The notes beneath the pieces are model-generated. The model was not told where the DNA came from, did no database searches, and worked only from the letters and a program-made list of their open reading frames with translations. Below, piece by piece: positions 4,190 through 30,893 of a stretch of 35,286 nucleotides of DNA (its first letter is position 1; every line of letters starts with the position of its first letter). Both the position numbers and the translations under genes were made by a program. This DNA comes from Phycisphaerae bacterium (lineage in GTDB: Bacteria > Planctomycetota > Phycisphaerae > UBA1845): positions 1-35,286 of the forward strand of contig JBMYUM010000003.1 of the NCBI GenBank assembly GCA_049605375.1, read 5' to 3'.

Positions 4190-4484
4190 CCCGGGTCTGT
4201 TGTGGTCATAACGCGATGACCATCCAGCCGTTGCATAATGCAAGGTCGTAACGACAGGCAAATCTTGCGCCATTTGCCGTTTGCCTGAAACGTTGCGATC
4301 GATTCCCGTGCGTGAAACTCACAGGCTGCTGCATCTTTCTCCAAACTTGCACCAATCCCGATCAATTCGCACATCATTGGGTTTTCTGTGCTGGTATCGG
4401 CGGTTATGATGCGCAACCTCAAATAGCGCGGTTGAAACGGGCGGCTTGGCAAACGCCCCGTTGCACTTGATTGGTGGCTTCAAT

Positions 4485-6803: not shown

Positions 6804-6920
6804 GACGACGTTGTTCCTTCCATGTCCGCCTGCGCCGGCCGGGTAGACCGCCCGCCGGGCTCGGCTTGCCGTCAAATCCAAGCCAGCGTCACCGGGATTC
6901 GATTCAGACCTCGGCGCATA

Positions 6921-6945
6921 AGAAAAGGGAGCCCATTCGGCTCCC
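6921..6945 (-). terminator. Intrinsic terminator for the leftward TPR gene
   Basis: GGGAGCC (6927-6933)/GGCTCCC (6939-6945) hairpin with an A-run at 6923-6926, which reads as a U-tract on the minus strand, about 40 nt past the stop at 6987. Confidence 0.65.
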
Positions 6946-6986
6946 CCGCATAGAGAGTTTGTTGTTTGTGTCGTGTCGCGGTCAGG

Positions 6987-9611
6987 CTACTCCGGGTCGA
7001 TGATCTGATCCGGATGGCGATGGCCGAGGCGGTAGCGAGAGGTTCGAAGGCGACGCGAGGGATCATACGGCGACGATCGACGGCGCGTCGAGGTGCGATG
7101 GATCCAGTGACGGTCTTCATCAATTTTCGAGCGATAGTTGTCGCCCATGCCCGGAGACTGATTGGGCTGACGACCTCCGCGATGGGACGACTTGGCGTCC
7201 GGTGCAGGGTTGTCAAACTTGTTCGAATCATCGACACGACCAGCATTCGAATTCGGCTTCGCTGCTTTGTTCGCAAAGTTGACGTCTTCGGTGTTGGTTG
7301 CTTTCGACTGTTCCTGCGAGAGGTACTGCTGAATGGTCTCGACGTCCCAGCACGTGTTGCCATCAGCCGCAAGACCGATGAGCGTCAGCAGGTTATCAAA
7401 CTGCACCTGATTCAGAGGGATGTTTGTACCCTGGGGATCAAACGCATCACATTCTGATGATTTCTTTCGCTCCTTCGACTCCGTCACTGTCATGGACATG
7501 GTTTCGCGTCCACGAGGAACCGGTACTTCTTCCGGTACCGATCCGAAGTCAACTTCATGAAGAGCCTGATAGGTGGCCTGCTCCATTGGTGACATCGTCA
7601 CAATGGTCCAGTCCATACCGGGAACATAATCCAGAGCCAGATCACTCATACTGACGTTCTGACGATAGGGACCGTAGAGCGTGGCGAGGTCGTTATCCAG
7701 GCATCGGATCTCGTCGCGCACCTGAACCAATCGTGCCTCGATCTGCTGACGCGTCATGGACGCCAGCGATTCGCGGAGTGAAATGGTCGGATTCTGCGCC
7801 ACGGGTGTGTGAATGGAAGCGTAGCCACTCGTCATGTTCCGAACGCTCTTCGAAGGACGAGCCATTGTCTTTACGTACGTGTTTGACGGGCTGATGGCAC
7901 GCATGGCAAGCGTCTGACGTGATGTCTGCATGATATCCGCGTGATCAATCAGATTGACCTGATCGACGACGGCAGCCCATGTCGAAGCGTCAGCCATGCT
8001 GCTCAGCTCGCTTGACGGCATCTCACCCGCCATCGCTGCTACATCGTCGAACGTGACACCACCAACGGCCCACGCCGTGCCTTGCTGAATATGCGGGAAC
8101 TCCTCGTCGCCGCATCCATCAAGAAACTCAAAGCCTTCCACACCATACATCATGACTTCGTTTTCGATGACCGGTGCCTGCACGACCGAATCGGTCATAT
8201 CAGTAGTGCCAGCAGCGTTTGTAGAAGGTGATGAGGTTACCGGCCGACTGGCCATCGTGGATCGGACTGGAGCGATTTTTTCCATCTGATTGATGAACGG
8301 GACGAAGAGACCATCGTCGGGTGATGCATCCGTCAGGAAGAGCTCGTGGCAGCGTGCCACCTCGTAGTCGAAGTCTGCGTAGGTTTCGTGCCAATCAGAT
8401 GCGGAAGCCATCATCATTTCTGATGACGCGGAGTCGTTCATACCCATACGATTGCCGCGCTTACTCGTGGACGGCTTGGCCTTCATCGTATTCTGCTTCT
8501 GTGCGAAGGAACGCAGTGCACTGGTAGGCCAATTCATGTCCGTCGCAACGCCTTCGTTTGGCATCATGACGCCACGGCTGGCTTCACGAAGATTTTCGTC
8601 CTCGCACCATTCGATGTCATAGCTCATGCACGCCTGGAGTGCCGCTTCATCTTCAGGGCAGCTGTTCTGCACTGCGACGTTCCGGTTCCGGCGATTGTTA
8701 ACCGGCGACACTCCGCCACGATTGCGTTGGCTTACCTTGTTCTTGCCTGGCGTTGCGGTGGAAGATGACGTGGTCTGGTTATTCTGTTGGCCACGGTCTT
8801 CAACCATGTTGGAGCGTGACTGGGCGTTGTTGTTGAAGTCTTCGTCGTCACCTTCGCTGGCGATCTGCTCTTCCGATTCAACCGGTGGAGCAAGGAAAGG
8901 CTGCAGGGAAACCAGCTGGTCTTCGGCTGCCACGAATTGCGGATTGACGCGCAGAACATCGCGAAACGCCTGCGCGGCTTCTTCGTAACGCTGCTGGCCG
9001 CGATACATCAGTCCCAGGTTATACTTGGCATCGGCCTTGGGCAGCACCGTACGAAAACTCTCGTAGGCTTCTTCAAATCGACCAAGCTTTGACAGGCACA
9101 TGCCAAGGTTGACATGGGCACGAGCAAAGTAGGGCTGAATCTTGGTCGCCTTGACCAGGTGTTGCTTGGCTTCGGCCCAACGACCGTTACGCATCATGAG
9201 GTAACCGAGGTTGTTTCTGGCGAGCGCATCTGTCGGACAGAGGCTGACGGCCTTGGTCATCGATTCGATCGCGTCGTTGTTGCGACCGATCTGAGCGTAG
9301 AGGATGCCAAGCGCCTGATAGGCTTCACCGTACGTGTGATTAACGGCGATCGCCTTCTGGTACTGGACAATGGCATCGTCGATCATGCCTTTCGCTTCCA
9401 GAAGCTGGCCGGCAGCGAAATGTGTCTTGGGCAGGATCTTCGGTTCGGTCAGGGATCGGTTGCCCTGTTCACTGGGCGTCGGCAACTCATAGCCCTCCTT
9501 CCATTGCGGTGACTGAATGGAGGACGCGGTCTTCTGATTGTTCTGCGCACACCCAGCGATCACGGCAATCACCGATGCCGACAGCAAGGTTTTTGTCAGT
9601 TGCTTACCCAT
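6987..9611 (-). CDS. TPR-repeat lipoprotein with long low-complexity C-terminal region
   Basis: GGGAG SD then ATG 9611. Lipobox VIAG-C. About 5 TPR motifs (AYQALGILY, ARNNLGYLM, AHVNLGMCL, AKYNLGLMY), followed by a long Ser/Thr/Met/Asp-rich tail. Confidence 0.85.
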   Translation of the reverse strand: MGKQLTKTLLSASVIAVIAGCAQNNQKTASSIQSPQWKEGYELPTPSEQGNRSLTEPKILPKTHFAAGQLLEAKGMIDDAIVQYQKAIAVNHTYGEAYQALGILYAQIGRNNDAIESMTKAVSLCPTDALARNNLGYLMMRNGRWAEAKQHLVKATKIQPYFARAHVNLGMCLSKLGRFEEAYESFRTVLPKADAKYNLGLMYRGQQRYEEAAQAFRDVLRVNPQFVAAEDQLVSLQPFLAPPVESEEQIASEGDDEDFNNNAQSRSNMVEDRGQQNNQTTSSSTATPGKNKVSQRNRGGVSPVNNRRNRNVAVQNSCPEDEAALQACMSYDIEWCEDENLREASRGVMMPNEGVATDMNWPTSALRSFAQKQNTMKAKPSTSKRGNRMGMNDSASSEMMMASASDWHETYADFDYEVARCHELFLTDASPDDGLFVPFINQMEKIAPVRSTMASRPVTSSPSTNAAGTTDMTDSVVQAPVIENEVMMYGVEGFEFLDGCGDEEFPHIQQGTAWAVGGVTFDDVAAMAGEMPSSELSSMADASTWAAVVDQVNLIDHADIMQTSRQTLAMRAISPSNTYVKTMARPSKSVRNMTSGYASIHTPVAQNPTISLRESLASMTRQQIEARLVQVRDEIRCLDNDLATLYGPYRQNVSMSDLALDYVPGMDWTIVTMSPMEQATYQALHEVDFGSVPEEVPVPRGRETMSMTVTESKERKKSSECDAFDPQGTNIPLNQVQFDNLLTLIGLAADGNTCWDVETIQQYLSQEQSKATNTEDVNFANKAAKPNSNAGRVDDSNKFDNPAPDAKSSHRGGRQPNQSPGMGDNYRSKIDEDRHWIHRTSTRRRSSPYDPSRRLRTSRYRLGHRHPDQIIDPE

Positions 9612-14490: not shown

Positions 14491-14519
14491 GCGCACACGT
14501 CGCATAACGGATGATCCCC

Positions 14520-16013
14520 ATGTTCAAGAAAGTGCTTGTCGCTAACAGAGGTGAGATCGCCTGCCGCGTATTCCAGGCGCTGCAGGAAATGTCGATCACC
14601 GGTGTGGCGGTCTATTCTGATGTCGATCGGCAGTCGTTGCACGTTTCGCGCGCTGACGAAGCGTACCCACTGGGTGGTCAGACCGCGATTGAGTCTTACC
14701 TCAACATCGAACGGATTATCGAAGTCGCCCGAGAATGCGGCGCCGATGCCATTCACCCGGGTTACGGCTTCCTGTCCGAGAATGCCGCCTTCGCCCAAGC
14801 CTGCCAGGATGCCGGTATCACCTTCATTGGCCCGGAACCCCGCGTCATCAAAGCCATGGGTGACAAGATTGAAGCCAAGAGCATCATGCAGCAGGCCGGC
14901 GTCCCCACCGTCCCCGGATGGTCCGGTGATCACGGTGCATCGCTGGATGTCATTCGTAAGGCCGCCGATGAAATCGGCTACCCGCTCCTTGTCAAAGCGG
15001 CTGCCGGGGGTGGTGGTAAGGGCATGCGTGTCGTCGACCAGGCATCGGATCTGGATGCGTCGGTTGAGGCGGCAGGTCGTGAGGCAAAAGCCGCGTTCGG
15101 TGATGCGAGAATCTTCCTGGAGAAGTTCATTCGGAATCCTCGCCATATCGAGTTCCAAATCTTTGGCGACCAAAAGGGCAACGTTGTCCACCTGTTCGAA
15201 CGCGAATGCTCCTTGCAACGGCGGCACCAGAAGATCATCGAAGAGGCACCGTCGCCGGTCGTCAGCCAGGAGCTGCGAGAAGAAATGGGTAACGCCGCCG
15301 TCCGTGCCGCGAAGGCCATTGGCTACACCAACGCCGGCACCGTCGAATTCATGCTGGATGCAGACGGCTCGTTCTACTTCCTCGAAGTCAACGCACGCCT
15401 GCAGGTCGAGCACCCCGTGACCGAACTGATCACGTCGCACGACCTTGTTCGCACGCAACTTCAGGTTGCCATGGGTTTGGCATTGCCCTTCAGCCAGGAA
15501 GATCTCACCATCGGTGGGCACGCCATTGAGTGTCGGATCTACGCTGAAGATCCGTGGAATCAGTATCTGCCATCAACCGGCACCCTTGCTCATTACGTTC
15601 CCCCCGCCGGAGCGCACGTTCGTGTCGACAGCGGGGTGACTGCGGGCAGTGAAGTGTCCGTTCATTTCGATCCCATGCTTGCCAAACTGATCGTGTGGGG
15701 CGAAGACCGGGAGGTCGCAACGCTGCGTCTGCAGTGGGCCCTGCAGCGATACGTCGTGCTGGGTGTGATCACCAATATTCAATTTCTGCAGTTTCTGGTC
15801 ACACAAGATTTCTTTCGAACAGCCGAATTCCATACACAAATGCTGGATCACGATCCGCCCGCCAAGCCCGACGTCGTCCTGGATCAGAAAACGCTGGTTG
15901 CAGCGGCGGCTTCATCCCTGATGAAGTCCAACCGCCAGCCGGTCACAGGGACGGAATCCAGCTCGACCGTTTCGCCATGGCAGGAAAGCGGCTCCTGGAG
16001 GATCGCACGATGA
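14520..16013 (+). CDS. liuD: Biotin carboxylase (methylcrotonyl-CoA carboxylase alpha subunit, BC part only)
   Basis: MFKKVLVANRGEIA, IHPGYGFLSENA, GGGGKGMR, ERECSLQRRHQK, FLEVNARLQVEHPVTE, FDPMLAKLI. No biotinyl domain in this ORF. Confidence 0.92.
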   Translation: MFKKVLVANRGEIACRVFQALQEMSITGVAVYSDVDRQSLHVSRADEAYPLGGQTAIESYLNIERIIEVARECGADAIHPGYGFLSENAAFAQACQDAGITFIGPEPRVIKAMGDKIEAKSIMQQAGVPTVPGWSGDHGASLDVIRKAADEIGYPLLVKAAAGGGGKGMRVVDQASDLDASVEAAGREAKAAFGDARIFLEKFIRNPRHIEFQIFGDQKGNVVHLFERECSLQRRHQKIIEEAPSPVVSQELREEMGNAAVRAAKAIGYTNAGTVEFMLDADGSFYFLEVNARLQVEHPVTELITSHDLVRTQLQVAMGLALPFSQEDLTIGGHAIECRIYAEDPWNQYLPSTGTLAHYVPPAGAHVRVDSGVTAGSEVSVHFDPMLAKLIVWGEDREVATLRLQWALQRYVVLGVITNIQFLQFLVTQDFFRTAEFHTQMLDHDPPAKPDVVLDQKTLVAAAASSLMKSNRQPVTGTESSSTVSPWQESGSWRIAR

Positions 16014-16549
16014 GTCTATTGCGCCTGAAACATCAGGGGACCGACACGGCGTTGCAGCTGAAGCTGGAGCAGACCGATCGGGATCAAAATCGTGAATTCG
16101 TGCTCCACACGGAAGACACATCAGCAGAATTCGAGCTTGAAATCCTGGCCGAGGGGCATGGTCGCCTGCGTATGCACGGCCAGGTTATTCCGGTCTACGC
16201 ACACTGGCAGAACAACAAGCTTCAGCTCTGGGTTGAAGGACAAATCTACAACTTTGAACGTGTCGATCCGTCGGCTCAACGTGCGACGGGTGGGGGCGGC
16301 AGCAGCGCGGCACAAGAGCACATCCTGGCACCGATGCCGGGCACGATCCTTCGTGTCGATGTGAAGGAAGGTGACCACTTCGAAGCCCATGCACCATTGG
16401 TCATCATGGAATCGATGAAGATGGAAACCACCCTTTCCGTACCGCACGACGGTAAAGTTCTTCAGGTTCTATGCGAAGCGGGTGAGATGGTCGAGATGGG
16501 TGCCACACTTGTGCGCGTTGCCGGCCACGACGAATCGGAAGACGATTAA
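16010..16549 (+). CDS. BT-like plus biotin carboxyl carrier subunit of the carboxylase
   Basis: ATGA overlap with the upstream stop (16010-16013). APMPGTIL and ESMKME biotin-attachment motif. Confidence 0.9.
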   Translation: MSLLRLKHQGTDTALQLKLEQTDRDQNREFVLHTEDTSAEFELEILAEGHGRLRMHGQVIPVYAHWQNNKLQLWVEGQIYNFERVDPSAQRATGGGGSSAAQEHILAPMPGTILRVDVKEGDHFEAHAPLVIMESMKMETTLSVPHDGKVLQVLCEAGEMVEMGATLVRVAGHDESEDD

Positions 16550-16593: not shown

Positions 16594-17517
16594 ATGAAAA
16601 CCGTGTCACTTCCGAAAAGCGTGAACATTGTCGAGGTTGGCCCTCGTGACGGGCTTCAGAACGAGACACGTCCCATACCTCTGGACGAAAAGCTGGCCTT
16701 CGTTCATGCACTGGCCGACGCCGGGCTCAAACAGATCGAAGCAACCTCTTTCGTTCATCCCAAGGCTGTCCCGCAACTGGCGGACGCCCTGGAACTCGCG
16801 CAGCAACTTCCGAGCCGTGACGGCGTGACGTGGTCGGCCCTCGCCCCCAACGCCAAGGGTCTGGATCGCGCCATTGAAGCAGGTATCAAGCGAATCGCCG
16901 TCTTCACCGCTGCGTCAGAGACCTTCACTTCAAAAAACATCCGTATGACGATCAGTGAATCACTGAAGGTCTTCGAAGAGATGATTCCGCGCGCCATCGA
17001 CGCGGGCATGTCGGTACGGGGATATGTTTCAACGGCATTCGTATGCCCCTACGAGGGCGATATCGAGCCACAGAAGGTGGTGGGTGTTTCGAAAGAGCTT
17101 ATCGATCTGGGCGTCGATGAAGTGGCCATCAGCGATACCATTGGGGCAGCCTCACCGCGCGATGTACGCGCCGTCCTCGATCTGGCCATACCGGCGTGCA
17201 GCAGCCAACGACTCGCATTGCACTTCCACGACACATACGGCACGGCCTTAGCAAACGTATACGCTGGCTTGGAGGCGGGAATCAGCACGTTTGATGCGTC
17301 TGCCGGCGGCCTGGGTGGATGCCCTTATGCACCGGGCGCCTCTGGAAATCTGGCCACGGAAGATCTGGTCTACTTTCTGGATCGCATGGGCATTGCATGC
17401 GGTGTGTCACTTGAAGGTGTCGCCGACGCGGCACGGAAAATCATGCAGCATCTGGATCCACGCCCGTCCAGCCGGCAAATGGCCCGGCTCGATGCCGGTT
17501 CACGGGACTGCCACTAG
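16594..17517 (+). CDS. liuE: Hydroxymethylglutaryl-CoA lyase
   Basis: EVGPRDGLQNE, TSFVHPKAVPQLAD, DTIG, LHFHDTYGTALAN, GGLGGCPYAPGASGNLATED. Confidence 0.96.
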   Translation: MKTVSLPKSVNIVEVGPRDGLQNETRPIPLDEKLAFVHALADAGLKQIEATSFVHPKAVPQLADALELAQQLPSRDGVTWSALAPNAKGLDRAIEAGIKRIAVFTAASETFTSKNIRMTISESLKVFEEMIPRAIDAGMSVRGYVSTAFVCPYEGDIEPQKVVGVSKELIDLGVDEVAISDTIGAASPRDVRAVLDLAIPACSSQRLALHFHDTYGTALANVYAGLEAGISTFDASAGGLGGCPYAPGASGNLATEDLVYFLDRMGIACGVSLEGVADAARKIMQHLDPRPSSRQMARLDAGSRDCH

Positions 17518-18669
17518 TTCCTCTTCCGATGACCCCTTCTCGTCTTTCCACACCGCCAGTTGCTCGCTTGACTCACGACGCTGGATAGAGCGGACAACGT
17601 GGCTCGCCATCCACTGCGAGTATTTTGCCGCTCCCTCAGCTGATAAGTGTACCCCATCCCAATAGTCATCATCCGTAAGCAAGCCATCAGGCGGGCGAAC
17701 GACCACGACCGATGTCTCACGACGAAGCTGCTCAACAAACTCAGCGTAGGGTCGATTCTTCGAAGGTGAAGCATAAGCCGGCGCAAACCGACTATGGGGT
17801 AGCTCGATCAGAAGGACCTCGACACCTGCTTCACGCAACATGCGAATGCTCCGGCGAACGGCAACACCATTGATGTTGCTCGAAGCCATGCGTTCCTGCA
17901 TGACCACGTCATGCCCGGATATCACATCCACGGAATCGTCGAGGGTTTCATGACCCGGGTTTGTATCCCCACGCCATTCCGCCCATCCGTTGGCATGGCG
18001 AATCTCACCGGAACGGGGATTGATCGGCGCCGCCAGCATCAGACGCTGCACGCAGATCCTGAAATCATGCCAGCGCGGATAGCTCTTGAGTAACGCAGCC
18101 GGAATAGCCGTATCCAGAAAGCGTGGTTCGTGACGGAAGACCAAGGGAACGGCATCCATCGCCCCCAGCGCCCCAAGACCATTGCGCAACCAGGAAGCCA
18201 ATCCAGTATCCACCGCGTTCGGCGTGATGCCAAGAAGAACGACATCCGGTTGATGGCCGGCATCAAGCATCCGAGATACGAACAGATACTGCGTCAATAG
18301 ACTCGACGCCGACGCCGAAAGATTGAGCGTGGTTCGCTCCACATTCAACGCCTGCCGAATGGCCGCATCCATAACTTGAGGATTAATACCATAGGCCTCG
18401 TACGAAGACCCCAAAACGACGACGTCAGGACCCTCAGATTGAGATGACAGCAGTTTCCACTTCCAGAGGCTGTAGTTCCGACTGCCATACAGTTCCCTCA
18501 GCGGCTGCAGAGCGAGAAACTGATCGACAGCAAGAAACACGAGCAGGAATGAAATCAGGAACTGAACGGCATGGCGACCATGAAAAGCAACGTGCCGTAC
18601 TGGCCGCGTCGATTCGACGGCACTCTTCGCCTGTGCGTGTGCATTTGCCGTCAACATCTCAGTCACCAT
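17500..18669 (-). CDS. Membrane-anchored SGNH-like protein (DUF1574/AlgJ/PatB-like), putative O-acyltransferase partner
   Basis: One N-terminal TM helix, VVVLGSS block I, C-terminal WDGVHL (DxxH). Directly downstream of an MBOAT gene. Its 3' end overlaps liuE by 18 nt. Confidence 0.75.
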   Translation of the reverse strand: MVTEMLTANAHAQAKSAVESTRPVRHVAFHGRHAVQFLISFLLVFLAVDQFLALQPLRELYGSRNYSLWKWKLLSSQSEGPDVVVLGSSYEAYGINPQVMDAAIRQALNVERTTLNLSASASSLLTQYLFVSRMLDAGHQPDVVLLGITPNAVDTGLASWLRNGLGALGAMDAVPLVFRHEPRFLDTAIPAALLKSYPRWHDFRICVQRLMLAAPINPRSGEIRHANGWAEWRGDTNPGHETLDDSVDVISGHDVVMQERMASSNINGVAVRRSIRMLREAGVEVLLIELPHSRFAPAYASPSKNRPYAEFVEQLRRETSVVVVRPPDGLLTDDDYWDGVHLSAEGAAKYSQWMASHVVRSIQRRESSEQLAVWKDEKGSSEEELVAVP

Positions 18670-18734
18670 AGCATCTCACTGCTGAAGCGAATCCATGCCC
18701 CCTCGAAGGCGCGGCAACACTCCAACGCCTGCGC

Positions 18735-20126
18735 CTAAAACTGGAAGTAAATGAACGGCCTGGCGTTTGGACTGAACAGTAGGACACACCAGAGGCCCAT
18801 GGCAGCGATCGCGCCCTGACCGACAGCCGGCACGCGCTGATCCAGAAAGTCCAGTAGCCGCCGCCAAGGCATCAGGTGAAGTACCGCACAGACCATGACA
18901 ATGGCCAGAATTCGCAAGCCGTGTATACGGGCCGGCGAGAAATCTGTTAGATTGGACAACATTTGTCCCACCTGCCCCACGCTTTCGCTACGGAACAACA
19001 GCCACCCCAGACACGTGACGTGGAACATCAGTATGACCTGAACCACGCGTACGGCGCCGGAGGACGATGGAATCTCACCCCGAACGTGCTTCCATGCACG
19101 CTCCGCACAGAGTAGCAGACCGTGAAAGAGCCCCCAGAGAACGAATGTCCAGGCCGCCCCATGCCACAATCCACCAAGGGCCATGGTGATCATGAGATTA
19201 CGCGACGTCAGCCATTTGGACCCTCGTGAACCACCGAGCGGAATATAGAGATAGTCCCGAAGCCAGGTCGAAAGCGAAATGTGCCAACGTCGCCAGAATT
19301 CGGATGGGCTCCGCGCAATGTAGGGTCGATCAAAGTTCTCCATGAATCGGAGCCCGAGCAGGTGCCCGATTCCGATGGCCATATCCGTATAACCCGAGAA
19401 ATCAAGGAAGATCTGGAAGGCATAGGCATACAAAGCAATCCACGCCGAAATGCCCGTGTAGCCGGTCGGATCAGCAAAGACCATATCAACGTACAGGGCC
19501 AGTGAATCAGCCAGAATCAACTTCTTGATCAGACCCTGGAGGAGTCGAAAGGCACCGTCCGTCAGTCGGATGTCGTCAGCCCGTCGATCCGTTGCCAACT
19601 GCGGCAGCAACACCGATGCCCGCATGATGGGGCCCGCAACCAACTGCGGAAAACAAGCGACATACAACGCAAACGTCATCCAGGATCGCTCGGCGCGTTC
19701 CCCACGGTAGACATCGATGGTGTATGACATAGTCTGGAATGTGTAAAACGAAATCCCCATCGGCAGGAGAATGTCGAGTGCCGGTCCACCGACAACGATA
19801 CCGAACTGGGCCATCATCGATGCGAAAGACGCGGTAAAGAACCCCAGATACTTGAAGGTTCCGAGTATGCCGAGGTTCGTAACCAAACTGAGAATAAGCC
19901 AGAGCCGCCGATGACCGGGCTCCGCCGAACGCTCAATGCGTTGAGCGGCCCAGAAGTCAACGAAGGTGCTGATCCACAGCAGACCCAGGAATCGCCAATC
20001 CCAGCAGCCGTAGAAGAAGTAGCTGCCGGCGAGCAAGATGGCGCGGCGCATCGATCCGCGTGTTGACCAATAGCCGGCCAACATGATCGGCAGGAACAAT
20101 GCAAACGCTGGACTGGTGAAAAGCAC
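18735..20126 (-). CDS. MBOAT family O-acyltransferase (AlgI/PatA-like)
   Basis: SYFFYGCW, LPMGISFYTFQTMSY, FPQLVAGPI, DFSGYTDMAIG, EFWRRWHISLSTWLRDYLYIPLGGSR, GLWHGA (catalytic His), C-terminal FIYFQF. Confidence 0.95.
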   Translation of the reverse strand: MLFTSPAFALFLPIMLAGYWSTRGSMRRAILLAGSYFFYGCWDWRFLGLLWISTFVDFWAAQRIERSAEPGHRRLWLILSLVTNLGILGTFKYLGFFTASFASMMAQFGIVVGGPALDILLPMGISFYTFQTMSYTIDVYRGERAERSWMTFALYVACFPQLVAGPIMRASVLLPQLATDRRADDIRLTDGAFRLLQGLIKKLILADSLALYVDMVFADPTGYTGISAWIALYAYAFQIFLDFSGYTDMAIGIGHLLGLRFMENFDRPYIARSPSEFWRRWHISLSTWLRDYLYIPLGGSRGSKWLTSRNLMITMALGGLWHGAAWTFVLWGLFHGLLLCAERAWKHVRGEIPSSSGAVRVVQVILMFHVTCLGWLLFRSESVGQVGQMLSNLTDFSPARIHGLRILAIVMVCAVLHLMPWRRLLDFLDQRVPAVGQGAIAAMGLWCVLLFSPNARPFIYFQF

Positions 20127-20338
20127 GGCTCGACCTCACGATCCAATCTGGATGCGGTGCGCATACACAGGGCGCACCGGCACGCTGGTTTATCGGAAGT
20201 TTGCCTATGGGAATCGACCTGCGCAGCGGAACGATCGTGGAGATGGGTGGAAAGCAATGTCACGCAGGAGGAACGGAACCGTTGTTTTCAGCACTGCCAT
20301 CCGCGAATCACGCGTAATGGCATACAAGCGGCATAGGA

Positions 20339-21313
20339 TCAGACGACACGGCGAGTGAGCAGGCTCCGAAGTGCACGAAAGTCCTCGGCAATCCGACGTT
20401 CTGGAAACAGCTTGAGAATCTCGTCACCGGCATCAAGCGCACGGGCATAGTCTCGAGCACGGACGGCCGCAGCAAATTCGGAACGCCAGTGGTCTTCGAC
20501 ATCAGCCTCCAGGGCAAGAAGCTGGGCGGACATCGGTTCGAGTAATGCGGCATCCAAGGCCTGCGACAGCGTGGCATGGATGACCCGACAAGCAGGCAGA
20601 TCCCGGTTTTCAATCGCCTGCTGCCATTCACGAAAGACATTGCGGGTTGTCACACCCTCCGAAACCTTCACGAGTTCCGAAGGACCACCATCTGCGGGCA
20701 GATCATCATCAAGCTGCTTGGCAAGTCGCGGAAATACACTCTGATCGAGCCGTGCGGCGGCCAGCCCTTCCGGTTGCCCAAGCCCCAGCGATGCAAGATC
20801 AAGCAGCGCAATCCGACCACTGGTTACAGCGTCCACGTGAGGATCCGATTTTGAACCTGACTTTCGCTGCCGCCCTTTTCGTGGCCGTGGATTTCCGACA
20901 TTCGATCGTTGCAGACGATCCAAGGCTGCCTTGTAGCTACGCACGGCGCCATCCAGCCGATGAACCTTTGATTCGAGTGACGATAGTCGACGCCGCCATC
21001 GACGCTGCGTTTGCAGCGACGCCAGGTTAGCGGCGAGAAGTTCACCCAGAAGTCGTACCATGAGCCGTCCCAGCCAGCATGCTGCCATCAGCAGCAGACC
21101 GGACACCACGCCGATCAGATTCCAGTCGAGGATAGCGAGCAAGACCAGACAAGCCGCCCCCCCAAACATAACAGCCAGCAGGCGAAATCCTGCCCGCACC
21201 GCCGTTCGAATCGCCCGGCGCGTTTGCAGGAGTGGTTCACCACGCGTTGTCGCCGTGTTCGACGTTTTCGGTTGATCACAGGAATCAGCCGGTTGCGCCC
21301 TTGCGCCATCCAT
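20339..21313 (-). CDS. Hypothetical membrane protein (two TM helices, coiled coil, helical C-terminal domain)
   Basis: 324-aa ORF whose ATG overlaps the manA TGA by 1 nt. Hydrophobic hairpin followed by a heptad-like segment. Confidence 0.7.
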   Translation of the reverse strand: MDGARAQPADSCDQPKTSNTATTRGEPLLQTRRAIRTAVRAGFRLLAVMFGGAACLVLLAILDWNLIGVVSGLLLMAACWLGRLMVRLLGELLAANLASLQTQRRWRRRLSSLESKVHRLDGAVRSYKAALDRLQRSNVGNPRPRKGRQRKSGSKSDPHVDAVTSGRIALLDLASLGLGQPEGLAAARLDQSVFPRLAKQLDDDLPADGGPSELVKVSEGVTTRNVFREWQQAIENRDLPACRVIHATLSQALDAALLEPMSAQLLALEADVEDHWRSEFAAAVRARDYARALDAGDEILKLFPERRIAEDFRALRSLLTRRVV

Positions 21314-22398
21314 CAGGAATCCCCTTTGGGAAGCCGAATTTCAACCAGCCCCGGATCAGGACGACCCGCCGATTGCGCCGCACCATGATCGATGGGTGCG
21401 TATTCACTCTCGGTTGGGAGCGTCACTTCAAGCCACATGCTGGCTTCTTCAATCTTGACCTGCCCCTCCTTCAAGGCAGATGGAAGCAGGAGAGTCTGAC
21501 CCGCGTGGAATTCAATCGGTGCCACACCTTTGGCACGAATACTTCCTTTCCCTTCCAGGACGATCCAGATGACCATCTGGCCATAGTCAAAAGGTTGCTC
21601 AACCCCTTCAACCATGCGTACCCGCTCAATGACAAATGAATCACACCGAACGAGGCTGGTCACCGCCGTCCACACACTTGCAACATGCTGCTTTTCTTCG
21701 CCCACGATAGGGCCCGAATCAAATGAGATGCACTCCATCGCCTCTTCAATGTGCAACTGACGAGGCTCGCCCGTCTTGGAATCCACACGATTGAAATCGT
21801 GCACGCGATAGGTGATATCTGAAGGCGTTTGAACTTCCGCAACAAGCACGCCCTTTCCCAGCGCATGCAGCGTTCCACTCGGAAGATAGTAGCAGTGACC
21901 CTTTCGTACCGGGATGTGCTGGAGGCAGGACTCAACCGTACCGTCATCGATCGCAGCTCTGAGTGCCGCACGATCGACACCTGGTTTCAAGCCTCGGTAT
22001 ATGAAACCGCCAGGCTCGGCATCGACGATGTACCAGGCTTCATTCTTGACGCGGACACGACCGCCCAGCCGTTTCGCCATGGCTTCATCCGGATGGACCT
22101 GAACGCTGAGCGTGTCATTGGCATCAAGGAGCTTGATCAGAAGCGGAAACCGGCCCTCGAACAGCGTCGCTCGGCCGAGCAGGTCAGCCCCCCAGGTCTT
22201 GACCAATTCCCCCAGCGGCACGCCCTTCGCCGGTCCCGCACAAACCACGGACTGATCATCTTCGAGATCGGCAATCTCCCACGACTCACCGATGGGCTCG
22301 TCACCGGGCAACAAACGACCGAAGGCCGTCTCGATTCGCCGACCTCCCCAGATCTTGGGTTTGTACAGGGGTTCAAAAAGGAGCGGGTATACATCCAT
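21313..22398 (-). CDS. manA: Mannose-6-phosphate isomerase, class I (cupin)
   Basis: KPKIWGG, IGESWE, FPLLIKLLDA..LSVQVHPD, KNEAWY, GTLHALG, EVQTPSDITYR. Confidence 0.92.
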   Translation of the reverse strand: MDVYPLLFEPLYKPKIWGGRRIETAFGRLLPGDEPIGESWEIADLEDDQSVVCAGPAKGVPLGELVKTWGADLLGRATLFEGRFPLLIKLLDANDTLSVQVHPDEAMAKRLGGRVRVKNEAWYIVDAEPGGFIYRGLKPGVDRAALRAAIDDGTVESCLQHIPVRKGHCYYLPSGTLHALGKGVLVAEVQTPSDITYRVHDFNRVDSKTGEPRQLHIEEAMECISFDSGPIVGEEKQHVASVWTAVTSLVRCDSFVIERVRMVEGVEQPFDYGQMVIWIVLEGKGSIRAKGVAPIEFHAGQTLLLPSALKEGQVKIEEASMWLEVTLPTESEYAPIDHGAAQSAGRPDPGLVEIRLPKGDS

Positions 22399-23141: not shown

Positions 23142-23546
23142 ATGACCTCGGCCAACCGAAGCAACAGCTCATTATTCTTGCGGCTACCGTACCGCGCAAC
23201 CGGGCTCTTTCTGATTTGTTGCGGCCCGTTTCTGGCAGGTTGCCATGATGCCTATGATGCCGCCCTGCAGCAGCGTGAGGATCACATCCACAAGACCATG
23301 CGCTACTATTTCGAGCGCGAAAGCACACGACCGGTTTCGATCGAGCGAATCAACGGCTACACCGAACAGCTTCAGGCGATTTATCAGGAACGGCTGGAAC
23401 GAGCACTCCTTCGCATCGAAGAGCGCTCGAGGGCACGAAATGAGGAGTTCTGGGCCGGCGATCCGGAGCGGGACGCCCATTTTGAGGACAACGCCCGGGG
23501 CGACCTGAATTCCATGAACAAGGTGATCACCAACCTGACGCCATGA
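23142..23546 (+). CDS. Hypothetical lipoprotein, helical
   Basis: Lipobox FLAG-C followed by a charged helical region. Start uncertain (23079 or 23142). Confidence 0.65.
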   Translation: MTSANRSNSSLFLRLPYRATGLFLICCGPFLAGCHDAYDAALQQREDHIHKTMRYYFERESTRPVSIERINGYTEQLQAIYQERLERALLRIEERSRARNEEFWAGDPERDAHFEDNARGDLNSMNKVITNLTP

Positions 23547-23719
23547 CCGACGGTCTCGATCGGGCCTTTTTTGCCCCCGGGCTCGATCATCGCCGCTGCC
23601 AGGTCAAAAAAAATGCGGCGCCATCAGCCTCCCTGCTTCAAGCCGCCGCGGTTACGCAATCGTTAGATTTTGATTCCCATAGGCTCCGTCCCTTGGAAAT
23701 CGAATAAGGTCGGTGGCGA

Positions 23720-23947
23720 TCAGAAATCGCTGACCTGAGATGACAACCAGTCTCCCAGATCAACATCACTGCCACGTGAGCTGCCGCCATTGCCGAGTTC
23801 GCGTGTCACGACTTCGATGCCAGACAGAACAGCGGAAACCTGATCTGCGCTGCAACCCGTCGCCAGCACCATGCCACTCGCGGAAGCGGCTGCGATTCGT
23901 CGGACCAATGTCCAGCTCTTGCCGTTTATGGTGGTTTGATTCATCAT
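23720..23947 (-). CDS. Small hypothetical lipoprotein (75 aa precursor)
   Basis: GGGAG SD then ATG 23947. RR plus hydrophobic stretch ending LATG-C, then a short amphipathic mature peptide. Confidence 0.6.
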   Translation of the reverse strand: MMNQTTINGKSWTLVRRIAAASASGMVLATGCSADQVSAVLSGIEVVTRELGNGGSSRGSDVDLGDWLSSQVSDF

Positions 23948-24014
23948 TTTGCTCCCAAGGTTCATCAGCGTTCCGAACGGTTGCATTGCCGACCTGAACG
24001 CCTGTTCAATTGGT

Positions 24015-24042
24015 ATATCGGACGCCCACCGATAATACTTTA
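24015..24042 (-). promoter_or_regulatory. sigma28 (FliA/SigD)-type promoter candidate for the small lipoprotein
   Basis: Minus strand reads TAAA-N16-TCCGATAT, close to the TAAA-N15/16-GCCGATAW consensus. Confidence 0.45.
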
Positions 24043-24126
24043 CCCATTTTAACCAAAACCCCCTTTTTATCGGATGGCCTGATAATTACGGCTTCGGCTG
24101 TAGCTCTTCAAACAACCGAATAGCTG

Positions 24127-24265
24127 CGGTTCCGGGAGGTCATAGCCTGGAAACGGGATAGGAACCGGGCACCCCAAAGAGAACAGGACACCCAAGAGCA
24201 GGCTCCGGAACGCCCCAGACTCTCATTGGGTCCCCAGCCGTCTCGCGGCGGGCACCGCCTTTGGG
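24127..24265 (+). ncRNA. Candidate structured RNA of unknown family
   Basis: Nested helices CGGTTCC/GGAACCG, CCTG-GAAA-CGGG, CCCAAAG/CTTTGGG, ACCCAAGAG/CTC(A)TTGGGT and GCCG/CGGC in a region with no credible ORF. Confidence 0.3.
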
Positions 24266-24444
24266 AAGGAAATGAAGAACAACGAACTGCCGGCCACGAA
24301 CTGCAGGATACAAAAGCAACGCCTAACACACTCTGCCAGGAGACGAATCCAACGAGGGACACGCTTTGTGAATGACCAACAGAATCGCTGGACCTGACGC
24401 GATCTTCCGGAGCGTCAAATCACGTCGCACGCCCACGTTCATGG

Positions 24445-24473
24445 TTGCGTTGCGCGTAACCCGCCCATATTAT
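24445..24473 (+). promoter_or_regulatory. sigma70-type promoter for metK
   Basis: TTGCGT (24445-24450), 17-nt spacer, TATTAT (24468-24473). GGAGG SD at 24528-24532. Confidence 0.55.
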
Positions 24474-24541
24474 GGGAGTTTGGCAATCGGACGGCCGTCG
24501 ACCGTCCTGATCAAACACACCGAGAACGGAGGTTAGTGGTA

Positions 24542-26708: not shown

Positions 26709-27323
26709 ATGCAGCTCGAACTTGCGCCCGAACGACTCCTTGCCGCCTATGCGGTAGGCATTTTCCCGATGGCCGACGAAGAGGGCGAACTGCGGTGGCT
26801 CGCTCCCAACCCTCGCGCCGTCATCGAACTCGACGAATTTCGCACCACCCGATCGCTTCGTGCGGTCGTTCGACGTGGCGAATTTGATGTCCGCATCAAC
26901 CATGACTTCCCCACGGTCATGCGGTGTTGCGCCGATCGACCCGAAGGAACCTGGATTTCTGCGGAGATTCGTGAAGCCTATTGCCGATTGCATGAACTGG
27001 GATTCGCTCACAGCGTGGAAACGTGGAAAGATGGGCGCCTGTGTGGCGGGCTCTATGGCGTGTCACTCGGCGGTGCCTTCTTCGGCGAATCGATGTTCCA
27101 TCGCGTGACCGATGCCTCAAAAGTCGCACTGGTCGCGCTCGTCGAGCACATGCGCGAACGACGATTCGCACTGCTCGACATCCAGTTCGTGACCGATCAC
27201 CTCAAACGCTTCGGAGCGATTGAGATCCCTCGCGCAGCGTACGAACAACGGCTGGCCAAAGCCGTTCGCATGCGACGAACTTTTGTCGATGATGATGAGG
27301 ACGACGTTGACGGCGATTCCTGA
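26709..27323 (+). CDS. aat: Leucyl/phenylalanyl-tRNA--protein transferase
   Basis: LLAAYAVGIFPM, PNPRAV, TWI, LHELGFAHSVETW, GGLYGVSLGGAFFGESMF, DASKVAL, LDIQF.T.HL. Confidence 0.96.
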   Translation: MQLELAPERLLAAYAVGIFPMADEEGELRWLAPNPRAVIELDEFRTTRSLRAVVRRGEFDVRINHDFPTVMRCCADRPEGTWISAEIREAYCRLHELGFAHSVETWKDGRLCGGLYGVSLGGAFFGESMFHRVTDASKVALVALVEHMRERRFALLDIQFVTDHLKRFGAIEIPRAAYEQRLAKAVRMRRTFVDDDEDDVDGDS

Positions 27324-29256
27324 AATCACCACCAGCCTGGCCATCGAAGATTCGCCACAGCGAATTTTCCTGACCAACATGCAGGCACTCTGGCGACAGG
27401 ACCCCGACCTTGCACGGCAAGTCGACGCCATCGAAGACGACCAGCGACCACCGCTCGAAAAGACCAGGAGCGGCGAGTTCACGACACAACTCGCCCCCGC
27501 CAACGGAAGCACCGGCGACTCCTCTTCTCCGATCTATTTGCACAGCCGGTATGATCCCGTCAAAGAAGCCCAACAACTGGTCAGCCAGCTCGAACAGGAT
27601 GAAAAGTACACCACCGTGGTCTGTGGACTCGGCCTCGGTTATCACGTCAGAGAACTTCTTTCGCGCCTCCGTGGCGATGCCATGGTCGTCTGCATCGAAC
27701 CATCGTTGCAGGTGTTGTCGGCGGCGTTGTCGACGCTGGATTTCAGCCACGCCATCCGCAACGGAAAGATCATCTTCCTGACCGATCCCGATAAACTTCG
27801 TATTCACGACCGACTGCAACCATTCAGTACACTCATGATGCTCGGCCTGGAATTCCTCCATCACCCGGCCTCCAAGCGCATCGAAGGTGACGCCCTCCAG
27901 GTCATTGTGAACGCAGTCAAAGAATTCGTGGCCTACACCCGCATGAGCATTCTGACGCTCGTCACGAATTCGCGCATCACCTGTAAGAACATCGCCATGA
28001 ACTTGGTGACGTATCTCTCGACGCCGCCGATCGATTCGCTGCAGAACCGATTCCGCGGCATGCCGGGAATCGTCGTGTCGGCCGGACCCTCGTTGCAAAA
28101 GAACATCGACACCCTTGCACGACTCAAGGGGAAGGCTGTCATCTGTGCCGTACAAACCAGCATCAAACCGTTGATTCAGCACGGCATCGAACCGGATTTC
28201 ATCACCACGCTTGACTTCCACGAAATGTCACGCGGCTTCTACCAGAACACCGGCGACCTCGCCTCTTCGCGTCTGATTGCCGAACCGAAGGCCACGTGGC
28301 ACGTGCTCGATGATTTTCCCGGGCAAGCCGCCCTGCTGCACAACGAATGGGCGGAACTCATCCTCGGCCCCGAACTGGGTCGTCGCGGCAGTTTGAAAGC
28401 CGGCGCTACCGTTGCCCATCTCGCGTTCTACCTGGCACGATACATGGGATGTGACCCCATCATTTTTGTCGGCCAGGATCTGGGATACACCGGGCATGTC
28501 TTCTACACCCCCGGGGTTGAAATCCACCAGGCGTGGCGGAGCGAACTCAATCGTTTCCACACGCTTGAACATAAAGAATGGGAGAAGATCGTCCGGAACC
28601 GGCAGATCTTAAAACGTGTCGAAGCCAATCAAGGCGGCACAATCTACACCGATGATCTGCTGCTCACATACCTGGAGCAATTCGAAAAAGACGTCGCCGA
28701 GTCCTCAACCAAAGTGATCAACGCCACAGAAGGTGGCGCCCGCATCAGAGGGATGGACATCATGTCGCTGGCGGACGTGGAGGCAACGTACTGTCACACG
28801 CCGATACCGGCTGAAAGACTGGCCGTCGACCTCTCGCTTGATGACCAACAATGCAGAAAACAACTCGCATCCGGTGCAACCGAACTGCACAACCGACTTG
28901 CCGAACTGAAGGATGCAATGGATGTCTGCAACGAGTTGTTGGAATTACTGGAAGAGCTGACGTCACTGACCGACTCGCCAACGGAATTCAATCGGCGCCT
29001 CGTTCGGGTGGACGAATTACGCGTCCGAATCACCAACGAGAGTCGCACCTACATGCTGATCAATGCCGCCTGCCAGTTGGCCGAGCTACGACGGTTTTCG
29101 GCCGACCGCCGTATCCGTGCCGTTGAGCATGATGAAATCGAACGGGCCAAACGACAAATCGAACGCGATATTGAATTCATCAAGTCCGTCAAACAAGGGG
29201 CCGAAGACGTATCTGAAATTCTCCGCGACGCGTTGGAGCGAATCGAAAATCGATGA
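27307..29256 (+). CDS. Motility-associated-factor (Maf_flag10/DUF115) type glycosyltransferase, full length
   Basis: N-terminal LHSRYDPVKEA and GLGLGYH..IEP. Central VSAGPSLQKN, GIEPDF, GATVAH, MGCDPIIFVGQDLGY, INATEGGARI. C-terminal helical bundle. Start uncertain (TTG 27307 after GAGGA, or ATG 27289-27295), overlapping the aat 3' end. Confidence 0.88.
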   Translation: MTAIPEITTSLAIEDSPQRIFLTNMQALWRQDPDLARQVDAIEDDQRPPLEKTRSGEFTTQLAPANGSTGDSSSPIYLHSRYDPVKEAQQLVSQLEQDEKYTTVVCGLGLGYHVRELLSRLRGDAMVVCIEPSLQVLSAALSTLDFSHAIRNGKIIFLTDPDKLRIHDRLQPFSTLMMLGLEFLHHPASKRIEGDALQVIVNAVKEFVAYTRMSILTLVTNSRITCKNIAMNLVTYLSTPPIDSLQNRFRGMPGIVVSAGPSLQKNIDTLARLKGKAVICAVQTSIKPLIQHGIEPDFITTLDFHEMSRGFYQNTGDLASSRLIAEPKATWHVLDDFPGQAALLHNEWAELILGPELGRRGSLKAGATVAHLAFYLARYMGCDPIIFVGQDLGYTGHVFYTPGVEIHQAWRSELNRFHTLEHKEWEKIVRNRQILKRVEANQGGTIYTDDLLLTYLEQFEKDVAESSTKVINATEGGARIRGMDIMSLADVEATYCHTPIPAERLAVDLSLDDQQCRKQLASGATELHNRLAELKDAMDVCNELLELLEELTSLTDSPTEFNRRLVRVDELRVRITNESRTYMLINAACQLAELRRFSADRRIRAVEHDEIERAKRQIERDIEFIKSVKQGAEDVSEILRDALERIENR

Positions 29257-30893
29257 AAACCATCGCTGCCATTTTTGCTGACCTGACAACGTCGACGCTT
29301 GGCACCGCGAGCCGGCTGAACACCCCATTGAAGGGAGTCCCCGTGCTGCGCCGTACCGTCGATCGGCTGCGGCAGGTCAATTCGCTCGCATCCATCCACG
29401 TCGGCTGCAGCAAAGAACATCACCAGACGTGCTCGGCTATCCTCGATAGCAGCGGGGCCGTCGTCCATGTTGTCAATCTCCCACCTCCGCCATGGCGAGA
29501 GCTGGTTTCCTCGGCACGAAAATGGGCAATCAATGGGTGGCGCGGCGGCGTTGGCGGCACGACCCATTTCGATGAGTTCGTCGATGCCAGATGGTTGGCA
29601 CCCTTGATGAACACGATCGAAGCCGAAGCCGTTGTGACAGTCCATGCCGGCGCCGCACTGGTCGATCCTGCACTAACCGAGCGTATGATCCGCCACCTTC
29701 AACATGCGGAAGAGATGGCACGCATGGTGTTCGGCCAATCGCCTCCGGGATTGATGGGGCTCGCAATGGGGCGCCCCATCGTCGAGGAACTCGCTGCCCA
29801 GCAAACCCCAATCGGCTGGGTATTCAGCTTCAAACCCGATGCACCGGCGAAAGACCTGATTACACAACCCCCCTGCCTCGAAGTACCCGGCGTTGTGCGC
29901 TATGCGGCAGGCCGACTCGTGTCCGACACCCGCCGCGGATTCGAAAGGATGGATCGCATCCTCGACCACTTCGAGAACCCAACCGGTGAGCAGATCGCAC
30001 GGCATCTGCTTGATGAAACGACCCACCATGTCGACCAACTTCCGCGAGAAATCGAAGTCGAATTGACAACGGACTCCCCTCTACCGAACTGCAAGCTGCA
30101 TCCAACCGGAGCGAACGCGGGGCGTACCTCACCGCTCCCCACACACTGCGTTGAAACTCTGGCGACGCAACTTGCTGATTTCGACGACTCGCTCATCCTG
30201 CTGGGAGGCTTTGGTGACCCGCTTCGGCATGCGGACTTTCAAACCTGCCTGTCGGCACTTGGTGGCAGAGCATTCGGTGTTGCCATCCGCACAACCGGGC
30301 TCGATCTCAATGAAGAGCTCATTGCTGACTTGACGGATCAGGGTGTCGATTTGCTGCAAGTCACTCTCGACGCCTGCAGCCCCGATACATATCGCAAGGT
30401 CCACGGCCTAGCCGGTTCTGAGCACAACCCGCTCGACGCGTTGCTCGCCAATATCGACAAGATCAATGTACGACGGGAAACGGCCAAGAGCATTCGACCG
30501 ATCTTGGTCCCATCGTTTTCAAAGTCGATCCTTAACATCGAAGAAATGGACCAGTTTCACGATGATTGGCTGCGGAAAGCAGGCGCCGTCTCACTCCATG
30601 GCGCGTCAACGTATGCCGACACATGGGACGATCTACGAGTCACGAGCATGGCACCACCGCAACGAAAGCCATGCGCGAGACTGTGGAATCGATGTATCGT
30701 TCTGGCTGATGGTAACGTTGTTCTATGCGATCAGGATGTCGCAGGTCGGCAGACCATCGGATCGCTGCACGAGCAGTCATTGTCGGAGATTTGGGAATCA
30801 GCAGCCTTCAATCGCGCCAGGTCGGCTCATCAGGACGGGAGCCTTTCCGGGCTCCCACTTTGCGCCTCATGCGACGAATGGCATCGACCGTAG
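29253..30893 (+). CDS. Three-domain protein: cytidylyltransferase-like + degenerate radical-SAM-like + twitch/SPASM (spiro-SPASM-like architecture)
   Basis: The N-terminus parallels SpsF/NeuA-type enzymes (PLKGVPVLRRTVDRL, LVDP, RLVSDT). Central EVELTT.., GGFGDPL, TTG, VTLDA...TYRKVHG without CxxxCxxC. C-terminal PC..LW....LADGNVVLCDQD....IG.L....L.EIW...CASC. ATGA-coupled to the Maf gene. Confidence 0.82.
   Translation: MKTIAAIFADLTTSTLGTASRLNTPLKGVPVLRRTVDRLRQVNSLASIHVGCSKEHHQTCSAILDSSGAVVHVVNLPPPPWRELVSSARKWAINGWRGGVGGTTHFDEFVDARWLAPLMNTIEAEAVVTVHAGAALVDPALTERMIRHLQHAEEMARMVFGQSPPGLMGLAMGRPIVEELAAQQTPIGWVFSFKPDAPAKDLITQPPCLEVPGVVRYAAGRLVSDTRRGFERMDRILDHFENPTGEQIARHLLDETTHHVDQLPREIEVELTTDSPLPNCKLHPTGANAGRTSPLPTHCVETLATQLADFDDSLILLGGFGDPLRHADFQTCLSALGGRAFGVAIRTTGLDLNEELIADLTDQGVDLLQVTLDACSPDTYRKVHGLAGSEHNPLDALLANIDKINVRRETAKSIRPILVPSFSKSILNIEEMDQFHDDWLRKAGAVSLHGASTYADTWDDLRVTSMAPPQRKPCARLWNRCIVLADGNVVLCDQDVAGRQTIGSLHEQSLSEIWESAAFNRARSAHQDGSLSGLPLCASCDEWHRP

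Follow-up and report, generated by a model that had tools for sequence, protein, structure and literature searches.

What does a protein built from enzyme-derived domains do when its start codon lies across the stop codon of a protein glycosyltransferase gene? The question is raised by two genes in a 35,286-nt stretch of DNA (the window), contig JBMYUM010000003.1 of assembly GCA_049605375.1 from a Phycisphaerae bacterium (UBA1845), where a Maf-type (MptE-like/DUF115) glycosyltransferase gene is followed by an open reading frame (ORF) for a three-domain protein that we call the partner. An earlier interpretation made from the letters alone (the sequence-only reading) had proposed that the two act in one protein-glycosylation module. 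Our analysis favors a more specific assignment, to which we give a probability of roughly 0.6: the partner would be a dedicated non-radical subunit of one Maf clade, working in a flagellin sialylation-type module.

The Maf gene occupies 27289..29256 on the forward strand when counted from the ATG at 27289, which gives a protein of 655 amino acids (aa). Its longest frame (27220..29256, +) opens at a TTG at 27220, and the true start is uncertain within 27220-27307, an interval with in-frame ATG codons at 27289, 27292 and 27295 and a TTG at 27307. Both the MptE-like central domain (PF01973, 136.2 bits against a cut-off of 34.6, residues 233-401) and the Maf N-terminal domain (PF20157 Maf_flag10_N, 33.8 bits against 23.5) exceed their Pfam cut-offs, and the profile search thereby bears out the family that the sequence-only reading had named. 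The closest solved sequence is 5mu5_A (E 2.7e-12), which we take to be the Maf of Magnetospirillum magneticum and the one solved Maf structure. Like that protein and Campylobacter PseD, the window Maf combines N-terminal and MptE-like domains, and it aligns with the PseD model NF050051 across residues 114-654; it differs from PseD in scoring only 100.9 bits against a cut-off of 670, and in being a member of a clade in Planctomycetota that the partner gene sets apart. A three-domain architecture for Maf proteins is described in PMC11339370. The partner gene (29253..30893, +, 546 aa) begins at an ATG placed over the Maf TGA, and both the reading frames and the bases themselves confirm the ATGA overlap at 29253..29256 (+), an arrangement of translational coupling that had been proposed from the sequence.

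The predicted fold of the partner protein (P0002), computed from a 121-sequence alignment, has a mean predicted local distance difference test (pLDDT) score of 97.1 and a predicted template modeling (pTM) score of 0.94, and many positions are conserved at 90% or above in 209 full-length relatives; this is a well-folded protein under constraint. It consists of an N-terminal cytidylyltransferase-fold domain identified by Foldseek and hhalign (residues 1-256; 29253..30020, +), a partial barrel resembling that of radical S-adenosylmethionine (SAM) enzymes and lacking CxxxCxxC, identified by sequence, BtrN alignment and Foldseek (residues ~262-460; 30036..30632, +), and a twitch-like (abridged SPASM) tail recognized by PF13186 and four conserved Cys (residues 468-546 plus stop; 30654..30893, +).

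For the N-terminal domain, Foldseek matched a Leptospira cytidylyltransferase (6oew, TMt 0.69), KpsU (1h6j, TMt 0.61), a CMP (cytidine monophosphate)-NeuAc synthetase (6ifd, TMt 0.54) and IspD, and a profile search of PDB sequences with the partner returned 6oew again (E 2.4e-6). By sequence family, PF12804 NTP_transf_3 reached 16.8 bits, under its cut-off of 27, and PF02348 gave no match at E<=0.1. CMP-sugar cytidylyltransferases carry a P-loop, 'AR.GSKG.P.K', whose Arg and Lys are functional basic residues. When the NeuA domain encoded elsewhere in the same genome was compared with the partner by hhalign (probability only 86.9), 'ADLTTSTLGTASRL' fell opposite NeuA 'ARAGSKGLPEK', so that these basic residues appear to be substituted in the partner. 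The same comparison left the WRGG stretch without a counterpart in NeuA; it belongs to a family-specific motif, W96 R97 G98 G99 ... D107 E108, that is 89-99% conserved among the relatives. The domain is probably a pseudo-cytidylyltransferase in which cytidylyl transfer has been lost.

Over the C-terminal two thirds, the best structural match was BtrN (4m7t, Foldseek E 1.2e-13, TMt 0.71), a 2-deoxy-scyllo-inosamine dehydrogenase of the twitch radical SAM type that also led the profile search of PDB sequences (E 1.6e-16). SkfB, SuiB, anSME, DesII, MoaA and BlsE followed (E 1e-13 to 1e-7 for BtrN and the first five of these), and a partial TIM-barrel fold of radical SAM type is therefore present in the partner by Foldseek. 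The catalytic signature is absent from it: PF04055 Radical_SAM scores 22.9 bits, below its gathering score of 29.5, the CxxxCxxC triad of BtrN aligns opposite 'ttdsplpnCklhp', and the triad is retained in just 2 of the 209 relatives (P0132 and P0167) and missing from 207. Conservation in the barrel falls on a GGxG[DE]P motif (residues 318-323) and on E270, H326, T347, D366, Y380, K424, D437 and W439, which together with four tail Cys are 87-98% conserved. The tail itself matches PF13186 SPASM at 47.1 bits (cut-off 21.5; residues 474-541), and its C474, C492, C537 and C540, conserved at 96-98%, all align to Cys of BtrN that we take to be ligands of the BtrN auxiliary cluster. A full SPASM motif comprises seven Cys and two auxiliary clusters; since only four Cys are conserved here and align to one-cluster BtrN, the partner tail is best classed by sequence as one-cluster and twitch-like, not as a full SPASM. 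BtrN and the partner thus share the C-terminal two thirds and differ in that BtrN has CxxxCxxC and no N-terminal cytidylyltransferase-like domain, whereas the partner shows the reverse. With no site for a SAM-cleaving cluster, the partner is predicted to carry out no radical chemistry. The domain order proposed in the sequence-only reading (cytidylyltransferase-like, radical-SAM-like, SPASM) stands for the folds and for the SPASM-family match; the profile matches of the first two domains are sub-threshold or absent.

We then placed the partner among known families. Among NCBIfam families the top match is the subfamily model TIGR04321, 'spiro-SPASM protein'; it scores 124.2 bits, below its cut-off of 250, and covers residues 222-544 only. 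TIGR04321 proteins presumably have a nucleotidyltransferase-like, radical-SAM-like and SPASM layout and a spirochaete distribution, and we know of no function for them. The partner shares this type of three-domain layout, as seen in Pfam traces, the model and the fold matches, and an Atlas 'spiro-SPASM protein' cluster whose commonest phylum is Spirochaetota resembles it with a feature score of 0.96 and TM values of 0.70/0.78 over 452 residues. Outright membership in TIGR04321, as suggested earlier, is not borne out: 25 relatives tested (18 + 7) all fall below the cut-off, the best at 209.3 bits; the TIGR04321 model found 0 proteins above cut-off, and many generic radical SAM/SPASM matches, in our sample of 301 genomes of the window's phylum (own genome included); and a metagenome scan with intact-like relatives yielded no protein of at least 250 bits. 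The source labels of the close relatives are all Planctomycetota, Phycisphaerae or similar, with the exception of one metagenome-assembled genome (MAG) labelled Alphaproteobacteria, and public databases name them 'SPASM domain-containing protein' or, in two JGI records, 'spiro-SPASM protein'. The partner belongs to a Planctomycetota sister clade of TIGR04321.

Forms that keep the triad also exist within the wider three-domain group (P0132, P0167, L141 and L146), and an Atlas cluster carrying CTP_transf_3, Radical_SAM and SPASM represents the same intact form. Two of these, from low-GC metagenome stretches (L141, 4570-6234; L146, 2473-4170), score 172 and 157 bits on TIGR04321 and have no Maf gene within 4.5 and 2.4 kb upstream, respectively; the small ORFs found there matched no NCBIfam family, apart from one weak sub-cut-off nucleotidyltransferase match. 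The link to Maf may thus be specific to the clade without the cluster. A CxxxCxxC motif in a further relative (L130) was rejected as a radical SAM triad because it sits in the SPASM part.

The two genes recur side by side. When genomes were scanned at one per species, 176 stretches encoding a relative of the partner came up, of which the best 80 were kept; four of these (L056, L104, L105 and L109) start at or inside the partner gene, leaving 76 informative loci. A Maf sequence lies immediately upstream on the same strand in 72/76, and in 13/13 informative loci from the metagenome scan (415 stretches with a relative, best 80 kept; 17 near-full-length three-domain proteins, 4 at contig edges), none of which has the triad. 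The adjacency is therefore not peculiar to this genome, and the pairing exceeds chance. Among the 71 genome loci with a Maf ORF longer than 250 aa, the Maf stop and an in-frame partner start overlap as NTGA in 56 (42 ATGA, 13 GTGA and 1 TTGA). In one genome (locus L204, contig C5 of G035, 2316-7422, -) the partner is enclosed by two Maf paralogues, one on each side.

In several lineages the two proteins have become one. Natural Maf–partner fusions occur in P0230 (1253 aa), P0237 (1233 aa), G265 (1169 aa) and G029 (1167 aa), as well as within the window's own class (G155, G068 and G238), and the Atlas includes two fusion clusters, one of 53 members at 1244 aa and one of 106 members at 1165 aa, in which 98-99% of members carry MptE-like. 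A 1224-aa 'open frame' in G030 was discarded as a fusion, being two overlapping frames. Folded as a single chain, the G265 fusion reached a mean pLDDT of 91.7 and a pTM of 0.89, with only residues 627-637, an 11-residue linker, below pLDDT 50; the model suggests that the two halves adopt a defined arrangement. Fusion goes with erosion of the partner half. P0230 and P0237 have lost the tail Cys; G238 keeps the N-terminal domain and part of the barrel, minus the Cys site; and G155 and G068 retain mainly the N-terminal domain (137-147 bits), having lost WRGG, GGxG[DE]P and the tail. This stepwise decay, with the N-terminal domain lasting longest, points to a structural role, and the loss of tail Cys and barrel argues that no essential redox or catalytic role is left in those lineages.

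These observations bear directly on whether the partner might still be an enzyme, one that performs non-radical tailoring of the CMP-nonulosonate or of the flagellin-bound sugar through its twitch [4Fe-4S] site or the acid/base residues of its barrel, and that sits beside Maf as the maker of the preferred donor. Strong conservation of barrel and tail (87-98%) would be expected of such an enzyme, the closest folds include the sugar-modifying radical SAM enzymes BtrN, DesII and BlsE, and the four intact-triad relatives and the CTP_transf_3/Radical_SAM/SPASM cluster of the Atlas lie in the same three-domain group. We nevertheless regard an active enzyme as unlikely: the site for the SAM cluster is gone, several fused lineages have dispensed with the tail Cys, or with the greater part of the barrel, and yet keep the fused gene as an open frame, and fusion to and co-translation with a transferase suit a subunit better than an enzyme of the upstream pathway.

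The same erosion counts against a sensor. A four-Cys site with BtrN-like spacing, kept at 96-98% even though the catalytic cluster is gone, could in principle mark the partner as a redox or metabolite sensor of the iron-sulfur type, turning Maf on and off with the state of the cell, and the nucleotide-sugar-fold domain could serve as its ligand sensor. However, that Cys site has been lost in all five of the fusions P0230, P0237, G155, G068 and G238, and the partner carries no regulatory output domain; we consider this role improbable.

Where, then, does the sugar come from, and what receives it? The sequence-only reading had noted that the window holds no flagellin, flagellar or pse/leg/neu gene, and a scan of the 23 other ORFs in the window turned up none. 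The rest of the assembly, a MAG of 616 contigs and 79.8% completeness, encodes candidates for both. It encodes one Maf and, on other contigs, gives 6 Flagellin_N matches, and contig C113 (L120, 6670-9620) carries a 610-aa NeuA-NeuB fusion with CMP-sugar cytidylyltransferase, NeuB and SAF domains, with a NeuC-like UDP-GlcNAc 2-epimerase after it and, before it, a 568-aa sigma-70-family protein that shows additional helix-turn-helix matches. Because an authentic NeuA-NeuB fusion is encoded there, the N-terminal domain of the partner appears unnecessary for making CMP-sugar; on these gene assignments, the donor sugar and its activation would be supplied from elsewhere in the genome.

Of the 301 genomes in the phylum sample, 28 have the partner (E<=1e-25), 69 have Maf (PF01973, E<=1e-5), 162 have Flagellin_N (E<=1e-10) and 118 have NeuB (E<=1e-20). 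The figure of 28 is a lower bound, since a hidden Markov model (HMM) of the family revealed extra partners, which adjoin Maf in G037 and G005 and form part of its long frames in G155 and G068. Genomes with the partner have Maf in 28/28 cases, flagellin in 28/28 and NeuB in 27/28, the exception being G213 (92% complete). The pair is adjacent or fused in 17/28 by coordinates, and in 8/28 the distance from NeuB to the pair or fusion is no more than 3.5 kb (G072, G225, G040, G014, G093, G192, G238 and G029). Four genomes of a family in the same class (f6, 98-99% complete) have flagellin and lack Maf, NeuB and the partner. Adjacency, overlap, fusions, this co-occurrence and the nearby NeuB genes support a functional tie of the partner to Maf and to nonulosonic-acid metabolism; it may bind, channel, sense or tailor the CMP-sugar, as the sequence-only reading had it.

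Could the acceptor be something other than flagellin, as the sequence-only reading had allowed? A non-flagellin target would fit the lack of flagellar genes in the window and the rarity of flagellin adjacency in the partner-linked Maf clade, of which we saw one case at ~8 kb (G072). Against it stand the presence of flagellin in all 28 partner genomes, compared with 162/301 overall, and in 66/69 genomes with Maf, the six matches in the own genome, and published abstracts, in which the Mafs examined to date act on flagellin. We therefore rate a non-flagellin acceptor as quite improbable, and flagellin, not a new target, is most likely what the pair modifies.

Not all Mafs have a partner, and a tree separates those that do. 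We aligned 63 Maf sequences from the sampled genomes with the window Maf (64 rows; quick IQ-TREE, midpoint root), leaving out rows with fewer than 150 aligned residues, the Mafs of G041 and G189, and several weak matches. One clade of 36 rows (SH-aLRT 99) includes 23 of the 24 Mafs that are adjacent or fused to a partner, together with 11 Mafs from genomes that encode the partner elsewhere; only two of its rows belong to genomes in which we detected no partner: G110, at 72% completeness, and G158, at 79%, whose Maf stands at the end of a contig. Outside the clade, 28 rows remain: one Maf adjacent to a partner (G005, whose branch is very long), four paralogues from genomes whose in-clade Maf has a partner, and 23 Mafs from partner-less genomes. 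By this tree, the partner-linked Mafs form one well-supported clade in Planctomycetota, marked by the partner gene. Several Mafs outside the clade adjoin flagellin genes, among them those of G049, G258 and G161. In family f18, to which these three genomes belong (contigs C22, C25 and C146), a distant, partner-less Maf type stands beside tandem flagellin genes, and some of the flagellin frames are very long (829-904 aa).

Upstream of the window pair lies aat (26709..27323, +; Leu/Phe-tRNA-protein transferase, PF03588 235.7 bits), directly before Maf, and the same gene occurs upstream of Maf in 40/80 genome loci, in most cases immediately before it and in the same orientation (on the opposite strand in L088). 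An HAD hydrolase often precedes aat. This aat–Maf neighborhood is probably inherited synteny. That the Maf–partner adjacency is likewise mere inheritance, as the frequency of aat (presumably unrelated in function) and the restriction of all loci to one phylum might suggest, is very hard to sustain against repeated independent fusions, a conserved 4-nt overlap, confinement to one Maf clade and co-occurrence in 28/28 genomes even where the genes are unlinked.

Several points weigh against the partner being a dedicated Maf subunit in flagellin glycosylation. Four of the 76 informative loci have no Maf upstream: L045 shows a 39-aa Maf-like remnant match alone at the junction, and L052, L061 and L069 show no Maf match; upstream of the partner, these four loci encode a radical SAM protein and a kinase, a LysM protein, a SpoIIE/GAF protein and amidohydrolases. 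The two genes need not be tightly linked, as 11/28 partner genomes have the two genes on different contigs or ~15 kb apart (in one of the 11, G192, the partner is at a contig start). The fold of the fusion gave pTM and pLDDT values, an indirect measure of contact between Maf and partner, and no motif is common to the fused lineages, so the role may differ from one to another. Conservation of the barrel residues and twitch Cys fits an active non-radical enzyme or a redox sensor as well. Co-occurrence with flagellin is the sole basis for the acceptor, and 54% of the genomes sampled have flagellin in any case; the Maf tree comes from a quick search alone; and genomes of one phylum are not independent, so that the counts describe a pattern and are not a statistical test.

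Two of the exceptional loci deserve a separate word. At L045, on a Phycisphaerales chromosome, the place of Maf upstream of the partner is taken by a 295-aa bona fide Radical_SAM protein (4981-5868, 72.5 bits). At L061, the SpoIIE/GAF ORF had been grouped with Maf in a blastp cluster, an assignment that Pfam rejected.

Taking these lines of evidence together, we propose the following working model for the partner as a Maf subunit. A NeuC-like epimerase and the NeuA-NeuB fusion encoded elsewhere in the genome would make the CMP-activated nonulosonic acid, and Maf would move it onto flagellin. The partner, co-translated with Maf, probably binds it physically. Its ancestor would have been a three-domain CMP-sugar-tailoring enzyme that joined a cytidylyltransferase-like domain, a BtrN-like radical SAM barrel and a twitch; today's protein may keep the CMP-sugar bound or present it by means of its nucleotide-sugar-fold domain, lend Maf acceptor specificity or stability, or do both. 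In unfused forms, where barrel and four Cys stay highly conserved, a residual enzymatic or sensing role may persist.

A precedent for a Maf that depends on a second protein comes from Shewanella, where, according to a preprint (bioRxiv 10.1101/2023.12.03.569772), Maf-2 needs the cis-encoded factor GlfM, a small four-helix-bundle protein whose gene is generally downstream of maf-2. In that text, Unay, Kint and Viollier discuss the interconversion of split and fused forms and ascribe the difficulty of reconstituting Maf to missing components, GlfM being one. GlfM is required by one Maf class and not another. The resemblance to the pair described here lies in a partner gene downstream of maf, associated with one kind of Maf, and in the split/fused pattern. 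The difference lies in the protein, which at 546 aa and with three alpha/beta enzyme-derived domains shows no homology to GlfM, nor is any expected. By analogy, the partner most likely plays a role like that of GlfM on an unrelated fold. The GlfM preprint makes no mention of radical SAM, SPASM or Planctomycetes, and a literature search covering sources other than subscription journals and supplements found nothing on the Maf–partner pair, spiro-SPASM or TIGR04321. The description that suits the pair best is that of a Maf accompanied by its own cis-encoded partner, in this case a pseudoenzyme with a radical SAM sugar enzyme as its ancestor.

The remainder of the window is of a different character. 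Housekeeping genes flank the pair, with metK, an HAD hydrolase and aat upstream and lipB, a FIST protein and purL downstream. In a cluster resembling leucine catabolism (carboxyltransferase, enoyl-CoA hydratase and HMG-CoA lyase), a biotin carboxylase ORF (14511-16013, +, 500 aa) and a biotinyl-domain ORF (15695-16549, +, 284 aa) overlap by ~320 nt in different frames. The ~679 codons that they jointly span resemble a single methylcrotonyl/acyl-CoA carboxylase alpha subunit, which points to a frameshift, whether genuine or introduced by assembly. A run of genes on the opposite strand (17500-22398, -), encoding a protein with a weak, below-cut-off GDSL-like hydrolase match, an MBOAT O-acyltransferase, a 324-aa ORF without a family and a type-I phosphomannose-isomerase-like protein, has the look of a gene set for O-acylation of a polysaccharide. 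Upstream of metK, ~1 kb (23546-24536) contains no long ORF; no Rfam family, and hence no SAM riboswitch, reached its gathering score there, and Rfam and tRNA scans across the window found nothing.

A wider view can be offered tentatively, and we hold it to be possible at best. The partner would be the missing third component of the whole Maf clade, a former CMP-nonulosonate-tailoring radical SAM enzyme that is now non-catalytic, docks on Maf, holds the CMP-sugar and gates or directs its transfer to flagellin, and the wider three-domain family, spirochaete TIGR04321 included, would act on CMP-activated flagellar sugars. If true, an orphan family would gain a first function, and protein glycosylation would offer a clear case of an enzyme turned pseudoenzyme subunit.

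Short of that, the partner looks like a second kind of Maf partner, one that is large, widespread in Planctomycetota, sometimes fused to its transferase, and derived from a radical SAM sugar enzyme minus its catalytic cluster. Should the partner prove to be required for Maf activity or specificity, it would explain how one Maf clade works and would place the relatives of an orphan NCBIfam family in a functional context. Since intact ancestor-like, cluster-less, fused and further decayed forms all exist in nature, it would also serve as a well-defined example of how pseudoenzymes evolve.

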